From Xanthomonas sp. (GTDB lineage: Bacteria > Pseudomonadota > Gammaproteobacteria > Xanthomonadales > SZUA-5): a stretch of DNA of 64,000 bases. Position numbers and translations under genes: made by a program. The stretch lies in the NCBI GenBank assembly GCA_020693165.1, contig JAIMJQ010000001.1, positions 142-64,141 of the forward strand. Reading direction: 5' to 3'. The first letter of the stretch is position 1. Each line of letters starts with the position of its first letter. The notes under the pieces are model-generated. The model worked only from the letters and a program-made list of their open reading frames with translations, was not told the DNA's origin and ran no database searches. Positions 7,790 through 58,870 of this stretch are shown one piece after another.

Positions 7790-7981
7790 AGGGTCCTCCG
7801 CCGATGCCGATGCGGGTCTCGCGACCTTGATCCTTAAGATCAGGTGGGAAGAAGAGAGCCGCTAAAGGCGGTCCGCTGCGAGGCGGACAAGCACATGCGC
7901 GGTTTGAAACTCTTCCCAAGGTCGACAAACAGGGTCAAGGTATATGGCGGACGCGCTGTCGCACAACGCAGAGGACGCAAG
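7790..7981 (-). ncRNA. ssrS: 6S RNA (putative)
   Basis: A ~190-nt non-coding gap lies between zapA and the 5-FCL gene, the conserved ssrS location. Read on the minus strand it folds as one long imperfect hairpin. GUCCUCUGCG (5') pairs with CGGCGGAGGAC (3'). ACCUUGACC pairs with GAUCAAGGU. UGGGAAGAG pairs with CUCUUCUUCCCA. The apical hairpin is GUCCGC..GCGGAC. The ends are approximate. Confidence 0.6.
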
Positions 7982-14741: not shown

Positions 14742-14810
14742 CTTGTGGGTCCAGACTTGTCTGGACGCTTCATGCGCTTGTGGGTACAGACAAGTCTGGA
14801 CCCACGAAAG
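14742..14810. repeat. Family A GTCCAGAC-hairpin repeat, two units
   Basis: cttgtgggtccagacttgtctggacgct followed by cttgtgggtacagacaagtctggacccacgaaa, between the convergent speD and coq7. Confidence 0.85.
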
Positions 14811-15494: not shown

Positions 15495-16654
15495 CGGTCG
15501 TCGGCTGGCAAGCGGTCAGCCAAGAATGCCACCGGGTGGCGCACCGGCAGCGTGATCCCGCGCAACACGAGGCGTTCCTGCAGATGCAGCGCGCACCCGA
15601 CATTGGTGGTGGCGATGGCATCGATGTTCATGCCGGAGATGGCGTCGACGATCGGTTGTGCCAGCGCATTGGCCTCGGCCGGATGCGCCAGCAGATGCGG
15701 ACCGGCGGCGCCGCAGCAGCCGAGGCCGGTGGTGATCCCGATCACATCGACTCCCGGCAGCAGCGCCAACATCTGGCGGGCGGCATCGGCGTCGCCGACC
15801 GTGTGTCGATGACTGCACGGCGCGAACAGGCCGATGCGCGCTGGCAGAGCGCGCAATCGGTCGGACCAGAACGCCTTTCGATCCAGCAGCCAGCGACAGC
15901 CCTCGATGATGCGGACCGAATCGGCTGCCGCCCGCCGCAGCGCATCGATGCAGCCGCTGTCGAGTGCCACCACCTCGCGCGTTCCTGCGGCTGCCCATTG
16001 GGTGCGAAGGTCTTCGGCCAGCGCATCGGCATCGGCGCTGGCGCCGAGATGGCGGGCGATGGCGCCGCAGCAGGCCTGGGCCGGCAACGGTCGCAGATCG
16101 AGCCCGGTCGTTCGCGCCACGCGGAGCAACGCGTGCTGTGCCTCGCTGTCGAGGCTGCGCGCCACGCAACCGCTGAACATCACGACCTCCGCGGGCGCCT
16201 GCGGCCGGGCGGCGACTGCGCGCCCGGCGCGCAGCAACCAGCGAGCGCGCCGACCGAGTTGCCGCGTCGCCGGCGGAAAGATGCGCGCGACGCTGCCTGC
16301 CGCAGCCAGTGCAGCTGCGGCGATCCGGGGGTGTTGTGCCGCGCGCTCGCCGACGGTGGCCGGCGTTGCATTCGCCGCGTGGATGAGCGCTCGCGCTCCC
16401 TCGATGATCTCGCCATAACGCACTTGCGCCGGGCAGACGTGTTCGCAGGCGCGGCACTGCAGACAGGATTCAAGCGACTCGCGAATCGAGTCGTCGCTGG
16501 CTGCCGCGCCATCCAGCGTCTTCGTGAGCGCGATGCGCCCACGCGGCGAGAACTGCTCAAGACCGCGCAGCCGGAACGTCGGACAGTGCGGCAGGCACAG
16601 CCCGCACATCACGCATTCGTCCGCCAGTTCTCTTGGGTCCGCGTCAGCGTGCAT
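15491..16654 (-). CDS. (Fe-S)-binding protein, GlcF / heterodisulfide-reductase-like
   Basis: The internal ATG at 16654 gives [25 protein letters not shown]... plus a second cluster motif [12 protein letters not shown] and Cys-rich CCG-type repeats. The track's 146-aa extension covers a repeat and the rplM promoter region. Confidence 0.8.
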
Positions 16655-16740: not shown

Positions 16741-16820
16741 CTTTGTGGGTCCAGACTTGTCTGGACGCTGCTCGCTCCGGTGCAGGCAACAGCGTCCTGA
16801 CAACTGAGGTCCCACCACAC
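16741..16820. repeat. Family A repeat, one good unit plus a degenerate inverted partner
   Basis: ctttgtgggtccagacttgtctggacgctg (16741-16770), then cgtcctgacaactgaggtcccaccaca (16793-16819). Confidence 0.7.
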
Positions 16821-17838: not shown

Positions 17839-17912
17839 TGGGAGATCGTCCAACGGTAGGACAACGGACTCTGACTCCGTTTATCTAGGTTCGAATCCTA
17901 GTCTCCCAGCCA
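17839..17912 (+). tRNA. tRNA-Gln (anticodon CTG)
   Basis: The cloverleaf was drawn by hand. Acceptor is TGGGAGA/TCTCCCA. Anticodon stem is ACGGA/TCCGT with loop CTCTGAC. T arm is CTAGG-TTCGAAT-CCTAG. The discriminator is G with an encoded CCA. It is collinear with E. coli tRNA-Gln as remembered. Confidence 0.9.
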
Positions 17913-17963
17913 CCAACAAAAAGGCCGCCCTTGGGCGGCTTTTTTGTTGGTGGCTGGGAGACT
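17900..17963 (+). terminator. Very long hairpin (31 bp) combining an intrinsic terminator with a reverse-complement copy of the tRNA-Gln 3' end
   Basis: 17900-17930 (agtctcccagccaccaacaaaaaggccgccc) pairs with 17933-17963 (gggcggcttttttgttggtggctgggagact), giving 30 Watson-Crick pairs plus one G-T. The core GCCGCCC..GGGCGGC followed by a T6 run looks like a rho-independent terminator. Confidence 0.75.
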
Positions 17964-25690: not shown

Positions 25691-25764
25691 CAACAGCGTC
25701 CGCACAAGGTCCGGACCCACGGGCTGGCCGCGATTCCGTGGGTCCGGACTTGTCCGGACGCTTC
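25691..25764. repeat. Family A repeat variant (CCGGAC instead of CCAGAC), two inverted units
   Basis: caacagcgtccgcacaaggtccggacccacggg (25691-25723) and cgtgggtccggacttgtccggacgcttc (25737-25764). Confidence 0.75.
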
Positions 25765-39002: not shown

Positions 39003-39686
39003 TCACGGGGGATTGTCCGATCCAATGCGCAGCGCGGCGGCGGCAGCCGGCGGCGCCAGCGTCAACAGCAAAACCGTCTGCGCGGCGAGCAACAACAGGG
39101 CGCCCTTTGGCGACTCGCCGAGGCGCACCGCGTCGACCGCGCCGCTGCCGAATATCAACAGCGGCAGGTACAGCGGCATCACGATCAGCGCCAGCAAAAT
39201 ACCACTGCGGCGCAGACGTGCCGTCAAGGCCGCCGCAACGATGCCGATCTGGGTCGCACCGAGCGTGCCGATTCCAAGTGCGATCAGCATCACCGGAAGC
39301 AATTCCGCCGGCAGGTTCAGCAGCATCGCCAGCAGCGGCGTCGACAGCGTCATGCCGACACCGTACAGCAACCAGTGCGCCAGTGCCTTGGCATACATCA
39401 AGCCCACGATGGAGGTCGGTCCGGCCAGCCATTGATCCAGCGTGCCGTCATCCACGTCCGGACGGAACAGCCCATCCAGGCTCAGAAACCCGGCCAGCAA
39501 CACGGTGACCCAGATCACCGGTGCCGACACCGGCGCCAGCCGCTCCGGCGTGCCACCGAGCGCAATGCCGAACAACAGCACCACCAGCACCGCAAAACCG
39601 AGCGGCAGCAACAGGTCCGCGCGACGTCGGAACGCCAGCCGCAGGTCGCGCGCCAGCAGCGCCTGGTAAGGGCGCAGGGCGGTCAT
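39003..39686 (-). CDS. ccmB: Heme exporter permease CcmB
   Basis: The internal ATG at 39686 gives MTALRPYQALLARDLRLAFRRRADLLLPLGF.... Six TM segments. Confidence 0.92.
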   Translation of the reverse strand: MTALRPYQALLARDLRLAFRRRADLLLPLGFAVLVVLLFGIALGGTPERLAPVSAPVIWVTVLLAGFLSLDGLFRPDVDDGTLDQWLAGPTSIVGLMYAKALAHWLLYGVGMTLSTPLLAMLLNLPAELLPVMLIALGIGTLGATQIGIVAAALTARLRRSGILLALIVMPLYLPLLIFGSGAVDAVRLGESPKGALLLLAAQTVLLLTLAPPAAAAALRIGSDNPP

Positions 39687-39724
39687 GGCCGGCGAACCAG
39701 AGCAGGTGGAAACGTGCGAACTGC

Positions 39725-39823
39725 GAGGGCACGAGGGCACAAGGGCACGAGGGCACGGAAGCGCAAGTGCGTCGCAACGACCGGCTTTCGCGTGCCCTCG
39801 TGCCCTTGTGCCCTCGTGCCCTC
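39725..39823. repeat. Perfect 33-bp inverted repeat with GAGGGCAC-periodic arms, inserted between ccmA and ccmB
   Basis: The left arm gagggcacgagggcacaagggcacgagggcacg (39725-39757) is the exact reverse complement of 39791-39823. The 33-nt loop starts GAAGCGCAAG. Confidence 0.95.
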
Positions 39824-39831
39824 ACAAGCAT

Positions 39832-40485
39832 TCATCGCGCATGCTCCAGCCGCACGGTGGTCGCCGGCAGTGTGATCGGCAGCACGCCGTGGCTGGTCAG
39901 CATGGCGCTACCGCCGCGGGCAAGGTGGGTGGCGAGCAGGCGCTCGACCACGGCCATGCCCTGGGCGTCGAGGTTGGCGAAGGGTTCATCGAGCAGCCAC
40001 AGCGCGCGTCGACTGGCAGCGAGGCGCGCCAGTGCCGCACGTTTGCGCTGGCCGGCCGACAATGCGCGCGTCGGTGTGTCTTCGTAGCCGGCGAGACCAA
40101 GGTCGACACACAGCGCATCGACGTCGCCGGGATCGGCGTCGCCGCCGATGGCGAGGCCGTAATAAAGATTCTCGCGTACCGTCAGGTCGCCCTTCAGCGC
40201 CAGCAGATGGCCGAGCCACAGCGCACCGGCGCAAAGCGGATGGCGCTCATGCAGCACATCGACGCCGTGGAAGCTGAGTTCATCAGCGGCCAGCGGGTGC
40301 AGGCCGAGCAGCGCGCGCAGCAGCGTGGTCTTGCCGGCCCCGTTGCGCCCTTCGAGCACCAGCAGCTGCCCGGCCGCCAGGTCGATGGCGATCGGAGCGA
40401 ACAACGGTTCCTCGTCGCGCAGGCAGGTGAGCTGCCGCGCTTGCAGTAGCGGGCGGACGTCGGCGATGGCGGCGTTCTGGGACAA
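39832..40485 (-). CDS. ccmA: Heme ABC exporter ATP-binding protein CcmA
   Basis: Walker A GRNGAGKTTLLR, signature LSAGQRKR, Walker B LWLLDEP. The start codon at 40485 is TTG, so the start is uncertain. Confidence 0.92.
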   Translation of the reverse strand: MSQNAAIADVRPLLQARQLTCLRDEEPLFAPIAIDLAAGQLLVLEGRNGAGKTTLLRALLGLHPLAADELSFHGVDVLHERHPLCAGALWLGHLLALKGDLTVRENLYYGLAIGGDADPGDVDALCVDLGLAGYEDTPTRALSAGQRKRAALARLAASRRALWLLDEPFANLDAQGMAVVERLLATHLARGGSAMLTSHGVLPITLPATTVRLEHAR

Positions 40486-40495
40486 GTGCAGCGGG

Positions 40496-40969
40496 TCACG
40501 GTAAAGCGGGCGGCCCGCATCCTACCCATTCGAGGCGCATGTTGGCTATTTGTTGCGGCAGCTTGGCGCCTGCGAACGGCGAATAAAGGCGCAAAGTCGG
40601 CGCCTGCCCGGGGCCGCGCAGGACCAGCACCGCGTGCTGCTGCCAGGCGCGCGCCCAGACATCGACAAGGCCCATGGGTGCCCGCACCAGGAAGCTCGGC
40701 TCGATCCAGCTGGAGTCCGGTGAGCGCCCGCGCGCTGCCAGCCAATCACATTGACTCGACTCGATCTGCCGACGCAGACCCAGGTGCCGCCGTGCGTTTT
40801 CGGACTCCGACAGCGGCCGCGACCACGGATTGCAGGCGCTGATCAGTGTTGCCGGAAGGTCGTCGCGGTAGCAGCCGAGTGCGGACGCGTCGACCCAGCC
40901 ATTGTCGCCCTTGATCTCGTAGATGGCGCTCGCATAGGTGGTCAGTTGCTTTGTGGTCAGCGCAATCAT
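40496..40969 (-). CDS. Hypothetical protein (DUF3293-like by recollection)
   Basis: 157 aa with an ATG start; it ends 10 nt before ccmA. The LISACNPWSRPLSESENARRHLGL block resembles the DUF3293 core as I remember it. Confidence 0.5.
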   Translation of the reverse strand: MIALTTKQLTTYASAIYEIKGDNGWVDASALGCYRDDLPATLISACNPWSRPLSESENARRHLGLRRQIESSQCDWLAARGRSPDSSWIEPSFLVRAPMGLVDVWARAWQQHAVLVLRGPGQAPTLRLYSPFAGAKLPQQIANMRLEWVGCGPPALP

Positions 40970-44497: not shown

Positions 44498-44576
44498 CTT
44501 GCGGGTCCAGACTGGTCTGGACGTTGCTGCCCTGCGCCGATGCAAAGGCGTCCAGACCCGTCTGGACCGACAAGTG
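44498..44576. repeat. Family A repeat, inverted pair (diverged)
   Basis: cttgcgggtccagactggtctggacgttgc and gcgtccagacccgtctggaccgacaagtg lie between convergent genes. Confidence 0.8.
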
Positions 44577-48536: not shown

Positions 48537-48845
48537 TTGGTGTGGGTTGTTGGTGGTGGTGTCGGAAAAAGCGAAGGCAGGCCGCAAGCCATCGCAAATA
48601 CCGTTCGTCCCGAGCGTTTCCCGCGAGTCCTGCGAGCGGAAAATAGTCGAAGGACGCCAGCCGCCAGGCATCGCCGAAGCCGCAAGTGCGCTGGGACCTA
48701 CTTCCCCGACTTTCATCGCGGCCACCGCTCTGTCTAACCGCCGCCCCACGAACCAATCCCGCCTTGAACGGGGTGAGTCGAGACGTCTGTCTGTCAGATC
48801 ACTTCGGGCCCGCTTCAACCAACACCGACACCAACAACCGACACC
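48537..48845. repeat. Large foldback element with GGTGTT/GTTGGT-periodic arms (same arm family as 54819-54945)
   Basis: The left arm ggtgtgggttgttggtggtggtgtcgg (48539-48565) matches the reverse complement of the 27 nt 48819-48845 of the right arm (full arm 48816-48845) at 23 of 27 positions. The loop is ~250 bp. It fills the gap between the convergent hydrolase and TonB-like genes. Confidence 0.8.
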
Positions 48846-48857
48846 GCTCCTTCTCCG

Positions 48858-54808: not shown

Positions 54809-54818
54809 GCGTGGTGTT

Positions 54819-54945
54819 GGTTGTTGGTGTTGGTGTTGGAAGGGCATAAAGGCGCAAGGCAGGGCGCTGCAACGTGCGCTGTCCGGCTGCCCCCATTGCC
54901 CGCCCGGTGCGGCCGTTGCTTGATCCAACACCAACACCAACAACC
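54819..54945. repeat. Foldback element with perfect 22-bp GTTGGT-periodic arms between lolB and ispE
   Basis: ggttgttggtgttggtgttgga (54819-54840) is the exact reverse complement of tccaacaccaacaccaacaacc (54924-54945). The loop is 83 nt. Confidence 0.95.
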
Positions 54946-56941: not shown

Positions 56942-57046
56942 GGGAAAAGGAAAGAGGAAAGAGGAAAAGGGGGGAGATCAACAGCGGTACGAGGAGCGCC
57001 ATGGCGCTTCGCTTCCCTTTTCCCTTTTTCCTTTTCCTGCTTTTCC
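56942..57046. repeat. Foldback element with GGAAAAG-type purine/pyrimidine periodic arms (after prs)
   Basis: The left arm gggaaaaggaaagaggaaagaggaaaagggggg pairs imperfectly with the right arm cttcccttttccctttttccttttcctgcttttcc. The loop begins gAGATCAACagc, like the 58757-58870 copy. Confidence 0.8.
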
Positions 57047-57203
57047 GAGAGGCGAGTCCTGTGGCCGCAAGCGACCACAGCACTCACCCCTCGGGCCGTC
57101 TGGTCGCGGACGGTGGCGTGGTGGTGAGGCGTGGCGGGGATCGCCGCGGCCTTTCTTTTCACGGTGTTCCGGGATGGAGCGCCTTCAATGAAGGATGATG
57201 ATC

Positions 57204-57972: not shown

Positions 57973-57988
57973 GCGGACGTGCAATCGG

Positions 57989-58132
57989 GTGAAACGTAAA
58001 ACGTGAAAGGTCAATCGAAGCACACACTGAATTGACGTTTCACTTGTGACCTTTTCGAGTTGAGTAAAACGTAAAACGTAAAATGTCAATTGAAGCGCGC
58101 TCCGAATTGACCTTTTACGTTTCGCGTTTGAC
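57989..58132. repeat. Two tandem foldback units with AAAACGT-periodic arms (before pth)
   Basis: In unit b, gtaaaacgtaaaacgtaaaatgtcaatt (58064-58091) matches the reverse complement of 58105-58132 at 24 of 28 positions, and the 13-nt loop is GAAGCGCGCTCCG. Unit a (57989-58056) is a more diverged copy; its inner 15 bp match at 13 of 15. Confidence 0.85.
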
Positions 58133-58144
58133 CGCTTACTCCCC

Positions 58145-58756: not shown

Positions 58757-58870
58757 AGGAAAAAGGAAAAGGGAAAAAGGAATAGGGGGAAGATCAACGG
58801 CACGCAGTCTCAGGTGCGCGACGGCCGCTTTTCCATTTTCCATTTTCCTTTTTCCCTTTTCCTGCTTCTG
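58757..58870. repeat. Foldback element with GGAAAAG-type periodic arms (between pth and ychF)
   Basis: It starts on the nucleotide after the pth TAG. A 19-nt perfect complementary core AGGAAAAGGGAAAAAGGAA is present in the left arm and as ttcctttttcccttttcct in the right arm. The loop begins gAAGATCAACggc. The right arm shares TTTTCCTGCTT with the 56942-57046 copy. Confidence 0.9.

Follow-up and report, generated by a model that had tools for sequence, protein, structure and literature searches.

A repeat-armed hairpin at the ccmA-ccmB junction, probably one copy of a dispersed non-coding family

In the 64,000-nt stretch of contig JAIMJQ010000001.1 analysed here (assembly GCA_020693165.1, filed as Xanthomonas sp.; hereafter the window), the genes ccmA and ccmB of the ccm operon stand 145 nt apart, and between them lies a foldback whose two arms pair perfectly over 33 bp. 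The locus raises the question of where such a structure came from and what it could mean for the operon that contains it. A sequence-only reading had taken it for a recent insertion, made on the spot by templated fold-back, with a G-quadruplex (G4) motif in its arms and a stem likely to have a strong effect on transcription read-through, mRNA stability or ccmB translation. Our comparison with related genomes and metagenome contigs suggests a different origin: the foldback is probably a copy belonging to a dispersed, non-coding hairpin family, built as convergent tandem arrays (here four times GAGGGCAC) around a non-repetitive loop, and was probably copied into the ccmA-ccmB junction as a member of a class that has several unit families in Rhodanobacteraceae/Lysobacterales.

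The operon runs ccmABCDEFGHI on the minus strand, with ccmC, D, E, F, G, H and I after ccmB. From ccmA to ccmB, with sequences given in mRNA sense, the junction is composed as follows.

39832 to 40485, minus strand: ccmA, heme exporter ATP-binding protein (open reading frame, ORF; Pfam ABC_tran; homologues named heme exporter protein A)
39824 to 39831, minus strand: 8-nt spacer AUGCUUGU from the ccmA stop to the hairpin; its last 3 nt prolong the inverted repeat, with one mismatch
39791 to 39823, minus strand: 5' arm, GAGGGCAC GAGGGCAC AAGGGCAC GAGGGCAC G, bearing a G4 motif by regular expression
39758 to 39790, minus strand: 33-nt loop, which aligns as 34 nt (CGAAAGCCGGTCGTTGCGACGCACTTGCGCTTCC) because its first C can be counted with the arm or with the loop; homologous to loops in L153, L139 and L060
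39725 to 39757, minus strand: 3' arm, C followed by four GTGCCCTC, the exact reverse complement of the 5' arm
39687 to 39724, minus strand: 38-nt spacer from the hairpin to the ccmB ATG, without a Shine-Dalgarno sequence
39003 to 39686, minus strand: ccmB (ORF; Pfam CcmB), with its start ATG at 39684-39686

Independent recomputation bore out the geometry of the earlier reading: the arms match at 33 of 33 positions, the hairpin begins 8 nt past the ccmA stop, and it ends 38 nt before the ccmB ATG. Pairing fails one base outward and one base inward, and when one mismatch is allowed the inverted repeat grows to 36 nt (TG[C/T]GAGGGCAC...), which makes the element a non-coding unit of 99 bp with inverted ends of 33-36 bp. 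Tandem Repeats Finder and an inverted-repeat scan resolve each arm into an 8-nt tandem array of 4.1-4.2 copies of GAGGGCAC, in which the third unit of the 5' arm is the variant AAGGGCAC, mirrored in the 3' arm. Within the window, matches to the 16-mer GAGGGCACGAGGGCAC (up to 3 mismatches) are confined to this element. The 38-nt spacer has no significant similarity to the inserts of relatives or to the other sequences compared. Its derivation as templated filler from ccmH, suggested by a 13-nt exact match 5 kb away, was rejected as chance (42 of 150 shuffles score as high or higher), and so was the idea that the 8-nt and 38-nt spacers are remnants of relatives' inserts, whose similarity does not exceed that of shuffles. 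A search of Rfam 15 at the gathering score found no family at the locus, and below threshold, at E ≤ 1, only generic eukaryotic miRNA-precursor hairpin models appeared.

That the foldback is an insertion follows from the comparison of ccmA-ccmB junctions in 12 genomes. Four relatives (L005, L007, L008, L010) have a compact 4-nt ATGA/TTGA stop/start overlap, and in more distant gammaproteobacteria the two genes overlap or are nearly adjacent, as the earlier reading had assumed. In seven relatives the junction is filled by different inserts, and the focal copy is absent from every relative examined. One form of a GGACGCAAAG insert (type A) is found in L004 and in L176, the nearest relative (91-93% nucleotide identity); a second form (type B) occupies the junction of L174 and L177, a GGGGCTG insert that of L006, and a 124-nt insert with no evident hairpin that of L009. 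The spacer is not common to the relatives, which argues against an old conserved structure. The foldback occupies a site that elsewhere is a 4-nt ATGA stop/start overlap, and ATGA is found on both sides of it: once in mRNA sense at 39832-39835, where it includes the ccmA stop (TGA, 39832-39834), and again at 39683-39686, at the ccmB start. With an ATGA on each side of the insert, ccmA and ccmB remain intact.

The evidence for a dispersed family comes from the arms and, above all, from the loop. When metagenome contigs were scanned for GAGGGCAMRAGGGCAC, for which many single matches arise by chance, nine high-GC contigs were found to carry convergent GAGGGCAC arrays (L060, L061, L074, L077, L099, L137, L139, L147 and L153), at least three copies being on contigs of one metagenome assembly, and a decayed GAGGGCAC-armed hairpin stands between ccmD and ccmE in L007 and L008. 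The surroundings of these copies differ: in L099 the flanking ORFs are, by eye, amino-acid-kinase-like and argininosuccinate-lyase-like, and the copies of L077 and L060 are flanked by other ORFs unrelated to ccm. The 34-nt loop of the focal copy is homologous to those of L153, L139b and L060 (z of 4.3-5.1, with none of 1000 shuffles reaching the score; z up to 10 among the three themselves), and the other GAGGGCAC copies have longer loops of 81-143 nt. A non-repetitive loop common to unrelated loci argues for copying and tells against the local fold-back that the sequence-only reading had proposed.

The state of the arms gives an indication of age. In four orthologous hairpin pairs, with both arms aligned in both species, there were no mirrored differences, 27 changes in one arm of one lineage and 10 shared arm asymmetries; since none of the differences was mirrored against 27 single-arm changes, resident copies are not kept paired by compensation or conversion. 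In the sole orthologous GAGGGCAC pair, L007/L008, arm identity has fallen to about 78% at 94% coding identity, so that a match of 33 out of 33 indicates that the focal copy came in long after the divergence from L176. As judged from sequence comparison, the perfect arms of the focal copy indicate a recent arrival, and on this point the earlier reading agrees with the different insert of the nearest relative and with the uncompensated decay in L007/L008. A general rule of neutral arm decay was considered and given up: it holds for L007/L008 and for the pair formed by the window and L174, and fails for the type B orthologues of L174 and L177, whose arms are 95% identical with loop and flanks at 50-70%.

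The focal foldback is one of five hairpins of this build in the window, the other four having arms made of other units (GGTGTT or GGAAAAG), and in 5 of the 5 the 5' arm begins 0-10 nt past a stop codon. The four further hairpins, to which no strand is assigned, are the following.

54813 to 54945: second hairpin, GGTGTT-type arms perfect at 22 of 22, 83-nt loop; between lolB and ispE, beginning 4 nt past the lolB stop
56942 to 57040: third hairpin, GGAAAAG-type arms; 10 nt past the prs stop
58757 to 58865: fourth hairpin, GGAAAAG-type arms; beginning directly at the end of the pth stop
48539 to 48847: fifth hairpin, decayed, GGTGTT-type arms at 48813-48847 and 48539-48571 around a loop of about 240 nt; 10 nt past the stop of a TonB_C-domain gene, and orthologous to L174:2484-2631

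The slots that they occupy are filled in different ways in different genomes. The lolB/ispE junction is an ATGA overlap in L181 and L184. At prs/rplY, the window, L181 and L184 have a GGAAAAG-type hairpin and L180 a GGACGCAAAG-type (type A) one; at pth/ychF the first three again have GGAAAAG and L180 a GGTGAGT-type hairpin. After the TonB_C gene there is GGTGTT in the window and L174, GGACGCAAAG type A in L177 and classical repetitive extragenic palindromes (REPs) in L176. Relatives in the same order contribute the unit families GGACGCAAAG (two forms), GGGGCTG, GGTGAGT and GGTTTCGGTT, at a density in Lysobacterales relatives of about one hairpin per 11 kb; none turned up when the same scan was run on the ccm loci of Microbulbifer and other gammaproteobacteria, about 740 kb in all. 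Polarity is fixed: in 7 of 7 unit families (8 of 8 with the Xanthomonas GGGAATC pairs discussed below) the 5' arm is the G-rich array, whichever strand is read, with an excess of just 3 G to 2 C for the type A unit of GGACGCAAAG. A count per copy (29 of 35, by a crude G-minus-C measure) overstated the evidence and was replaced by the count per family.

The GGACGCAAAG family shows how far the arms can be separated from what they enclose. Nine type A copies have their arms in common and unrelated loops of 53-115 nt (z < 3 in 32 of 36 pairs, the four exceptions including the orthologous pair). In three GGACGCAAAG copies the arms have a G/A mismatch at one position, in the same orientation in L147 and L177 and reversed in L077, and given this positional mismatch we dropped the notion that every copying event rebuilds the two arms from one of them. 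The ccmH/I junction of L176 contains a complete GGACGCAAAG hairpin of 135 bp (16045-16190) and that of L174 only TTGTCCGCAAAGGACAA, a 6-bp mini-hairpin (16225-16250), an apparent footprint of internal deletion of the full hairpin. A loop motif, GATCAAC(A)GC, adjoins the arm in three unit families (window 56976-56986, 58792-58802 and, on the other strand, 54918-54927; L004 8303-8313), and the prs/rplY orthologues of the window and L184 carry it at opposite loop ends, as an inversion of the loop would leave it. As marks of the class, neither the GATCAAC motif nor a site with the integration host factor (IHF) consensus, WATCAANNNNTTR, was retained: both occur near some hairpins and are neither in nor beside the focal one. 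Transposon-like TG...CA termini were likewise rejected: besides the focal copy they fit L074 and the type A copies of GGACGCAAAG, but not the other families.

The closest known relatives are the GGGAATC heptamer arrays of Xanthomonas, described as 70-75 convergent pairs per genome, with four units preferred (the number linked to G4 formation), placed between co-oriented ORFs, on average 28 nt from the upstream one, and of unknown function (Rehm et al. 2015, PLoS One, PMC4692102). Both kinds consist of a short G-rich unit in tandem, typically four times, in convergent arrays able to form a stem-loop; both lie in intergenic sequence, for the most part where the two ORFs are co-oriented, and near the upstream ORF's end, and both belong to the same bacterial order. 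By the terms of that description the focal element agrees in unit number, convergence and placement and differs in the unit itself, which is the octamer GAGGGCAC and neither GGGAATC nor GGGNATC, so that the defining test fails although the architecture matches, and we class the element as a variant of the Xanthomonas repeat-pair kind. The host family here is Rhodanobacteraceae, and one genome holds several unit families, some without a GGG run, whereas the Xanthomonas pairs were not treated as copies of a dispersed element and nothing was reported on one type taking another's place at a site (PMC4692102). Literature searches returned no later mechanistic work on the Xanthomonas repeats; the other matches use such loci as variable-number tandem repeat markers.

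The class, which sits roughly 0-15 nt past stop codons as REPs and bacterial interspersed mosaic elements (BIMEs) do, would be the counterpart of these pairs. With REPs, paired REPs (REPINs) and BIMEs it has in common that abundant intergenic hairpins lie just past stop codons, within operons too, and the focal element resembles a REPIN in that two inverted repeats around a spacer make one long hairpin. The same slots hold REPs or repeat-armed hairpins depending on the genome, and both kinds occur in the same mosaic flanking modules. However, a REP arm is an imperfect palindrome with a GTAG/GTGG head, whereas the focal arms are tandem repeats with no palindrome and no such head (an arm by itself folds at just -3.9 kcal/mol), and the focal stem, at 33 bp, is much longer and perfect. 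A classical REP/REPIN-like family, GTGGGTCCAGACTTGTCTGGAC(GC), GTGG-headed and often in inverted doublets, is also present in the window (14 matches against 0 expected, including 2053-2123, 14745-14805, 16745-16770, 25738-25759 and 44501-44571) and in L004, L010, L176 and L177. The mosaic modules have the order GTGCGCTTGTTCGCGCATCGA, hairpin, AAATCAATACCTTACGGCATGTTCGGTGAGAG (L004 7650-8200, L174 16170-16300, L176 15990-16250, L061 2520-2560), the hairpin being a REP in one place and repeat-armed in another, which recalls the BIME/RIP arrangement of Escherichia coli; some copies contain the IHF-consensus-like WATCAANNNNTTR.

Other comparisons are less close. Like MITEs (miniature inverted-repeat transposable elements) and foldback elements (Correia/NEMIS; eukaryotic Foldback), the focal element is small and non-coding, has terminal inverted repeats and dispersed copies, varies in presence among relatives and is bordered by ATGA on both sides; eukaryotic Foldback elements also have long inverted ends built of short tandem repeats. 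Unlike MITEs, it has no known parent insertion sequence (IS) or transposase with matching ends, the flanking duplication is inconsistent between sites, and in the GGACGCAAAG family only the arms are common to the copies. The short tandemly repeated repetitive (STRR) sequences of cyanobacteria and the TAACTGA repeats of Beggiatoaceae are similarly lineage-specific, on a 7-nt scale, intergenic or intra-operon and suspected of a post-transcriptional role, but their units differ and they are nearly always direct arrays: of 169 sets in Beggiatoaceae one was inverted, and Nostoc has 'only a few paired repeats' (MacGregor 2015, PMC4679880). Finally, intrinsic terminators and intercistronic stabiliser stem-loops also place a GC-rich stem immediately past a stop codon, but compared with terminators the focal stem is three to five times longer, has no U-tract and is followed by essential genes of the same operon.

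Several observations weigh against the reading of the foldback as a copied member of a dispersed family. The GGACGCAAAG copies, with common arms and unrelated loops, do not fit simple copy-and-paste, and on this ground we do not regard the class as a simple cut-or-copy-and-paste element. No transposase, REP-associated tyrosine transposase (RAYT) or other mobilising gene was identified, no search having been aimed at RAYT genes or a parent IS, and with a single GAGGGCAC copy in the window, the multi-copy status of the family in this organism is drawn from other genomes. The ATGA on both sides of the insert, seen in the window, L004, L174, L176 and L177, is not taken here as proof of target-site duplication: it could equally reflect selection, since keeping the stop and the start intact would leave the junction looking no different, and the left copy at lolB/ispE is something other than ATGA. 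In 8 of the 12 genomes there is some insert at ccmA-ccmB, which could mean selection for a structure at that place, and the conservation of the L174/L177 arms hints at constraint, possibly a host function, in some families at least. All effects at the RNA level, lastly, are ones that we infer.

Some of these observations are what would be expected of a selected regulatory hairpin, that is, a stem that sets the CcmA:CcmB ratio through mRNA processing, stabilisation or slowed termination, for which different repeat families were recruited. The inserts at this junction are of at least five kinds, the start 0-10 nt past the stop codon holds for every hairpin in the window, and the arms of L174/L177 are far better conserved in sequence than their loop and flanks. 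REPs no more than 15 nt from a stop codon are reported to lower translation of the upstream gene in E. coli. The four relatives without an insert nevertheless keep the coupled ATGA overlap; the inserts vary in stem length, in loop size, from 33 to 115 nt, and in how far past the stop they lie, from 8 to 50 nt, that of L009 having no evident hairpin; no compensatory change occurred in the four orthologous pairs; and it is not obvious why subunits of one ABC transporter should need uncoupling. We consider selection for the hairpin an unlikely explanation.

Somewhat less probable still is a local origin, in which a GAGGGCAC array already present was copied in place into its inverted partner, through a replication error of the template-switch or snap-back type. 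The perfect symmetry of the arms and the mirrored variant AAGGGCAC are as this would predict, mirrored variants are found also in L074 and at 54819-54945, solo GAGGGCAC arrays exist (L057, L122, L157), and the loops of the GGACGCAAAG copies are unrelated, as expected of local loop sequence. But the compact state, with zero intergenic bases, offers no local array or loop to copy, the focal loop is homologous to loops at unrelated loci, and the 8-nt and 38-nt spacers would have to be new too.

The idea of a G4 element, with four GGG tracts forming a DNA or RNA quadruplex that regulates ccm, as proposed for the Xanthomonas GGGAATC repeats, survives poorly. The motif G3N5G3N5G3N5G3 is indeed present at 39727, with its C-strand equivalent at 39795, so that the G-rich arm of both strands bears it, and the four units agree with those of Rehm et al. 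(PMC4692102); this part of the earlier claim stands. Its interpretation is not supported: G4Hunter gives 0.97-1.19, below the usual threshold and under 1.2 for the arm, and in the G-quadruplex model of ViennaRNA the arm alone reaches -5.9 kcal/mol, the arm plus loop prefers a hairpin of -20.6 kcal/mol and the full 99-nt element folds at -88.2 kcal/mol by itself, the rival hairpin fold being favoured over the G4 by more than 80 kcal/mol. Since the GGAAAAG, GGTGTT and GGTGAGT arms have no GGG run and yet have the same architecture, G4 potential is not the common denominator and is, on these models, incidental, a by-product of the unit sequence and not what unites the class. We regard regulation by a G4 as very unlikely. 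An assembly artefact, such as a chimeric or folded contig, can practically be dismissed: although the source is a metagenome-assembled genome and inverted repeats are handled badly in short-read assembly, contigs of two independent Logan assemblies, made from other read sets (SRR11600162 and SRR11600163), end or start within the same arm sequences beside ccmA and ccmB, so that the element is not an artefact of its source, and the same architecture is found in many other assemblies, long JGI contigs included.

The element would be transcribed within the ccm mRNA and fold into a 33-bp helix; the predicted folding energy of the 181-nt junction RNA is -116.5 kcal/mol, with z = -9.8 relative to shuffled sequences. 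What follows the 3' arm is GCAGUUCGCACG, not a U-tract, and neither a sigma-70-like promoter nor a stem-plus-U-tract terminator was found on either strand of 39300-40600. Because there is no U-tract and the essential genes ccmB to ccmI lie downstream, termination at the element is not expected. Hairpins of the same kind stand at ccmD/E and ccmH/I in relatives with intact ccm operons, and long inserts of unidentified type are found at ccmD/E of L174 and ccmE/F of L177; with essential ccm genes downstream and relatives that tolerate such hairpins, transcription must read through, and the strong block that the earlier reading anticipated finds no support here. Perfect RNA duplexes that exceed two turns are substrates of RNase III and hold up 3' exonucleases, which makes processing or stabilisation of the ccmA segment the likeliest effect on the RNA: if active at all, the element would most likely split the transcript or stabilise its ccmA part.

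Translation presents a separate problem. The old Shine-Dalgarno sequence of ccmB, a GGAG in the 3' end of ccmA, is displaced by the insertion by about 150 nt, and the pairing energy with the anti-Shine-Dalgarno sequence before ccmB is -2.2 kcal/mol in the window, compared with -5.6 kcal/mol in relatives with a compact junction, which agrees with the earlier remark that no such signal is visible. In five of six relatives with other inserts it lies between -4.1 and -7.2 kcal/mol, and L009 has none (-0.1 kcal/mol). The insertion would thereby break the translational coupling of ccmA and ccmB and leave ccmB without a Shine-Dalgarno sequence. The longest ccmA ORF, for its part, has a TTG start and no Shine-Dalgarno sequence (+0.6 kcal/mol), and its true start may be elsewhere. 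The net effect on ccm is probably near neutral, that of a tolerated passenger.

Some other structures in the window were noted. Upstream of pth, the AT-richer stretch 57988-58133, with GTAAAAC/GTGAAAC heptamers and the motifs TTGACCTTT/AAAGGTCAA in inverted orientation, has the look of an operator- or iteron-like region and not of a repeat-armed hairpin. A 30-bp near-perfect hairpin at 17900-17963, with a 4-nt loop and A/T runs, overlaps the 3' end of the tRNA at 17839-17909 and is probably a bidirectional terminator. 6S RNA lies at 7791-7977 on the minus strand (Rfam RF00013, 66.9 bits). A conserved non-coding block, CTCACCCCTCGG..GTCTGGTCGCGGAC..GTGGTGAGGCGTGGCG, precedes rplY (window 57080-57190, L180 4925-5040, L181 5080-5190, L184 5085-5200) and is probably a leader or promoter region, with no Rfam match at the gathering score.

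What the finding means lies mostly at the level of the class. Fixed polarity, homology limited to the arms and replacement of one family by another are not fully explained by slippage of simple sequence repeats or by REPIN or MITE models. From the arm-only homology, the fixed polarity, the position 0-10 nt past stop codons and the swapping of families at one junction among close relatives, it is conceivable, though we think it doubtful, that the repeat-armed hairpins of Lysobacterales/Xanthomonadales are one superfamily with an undescribed mechanism of copying or maintenance. As a candidate idea, arrays that point at the loop have the orientation in which RecBCD, if it entered where the hairpin tip is broken, would have to meet a Chi-like sequence to read it; if so, the hairpins would be self-protecting palindromes. 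The sole published account, that of the Xanthomonas GGGAATC arrays, framed such repeats as G-quadruplexes, and the units found here that cannot form a G4 shift the focus to the hairpin and the sequence of its arms. On the practical side, such repeats break short-read assemblies, as two contigs illustrate, and the locus offers a natural test of a perfect 33-bp stem in a polycistronic mRNA and of ccmB translation without coupling and Shine-Dalgarno sequence. The focal element itself is an ordinary member of an unusual and barely studied class, whose class-level properties are the interesting residue.

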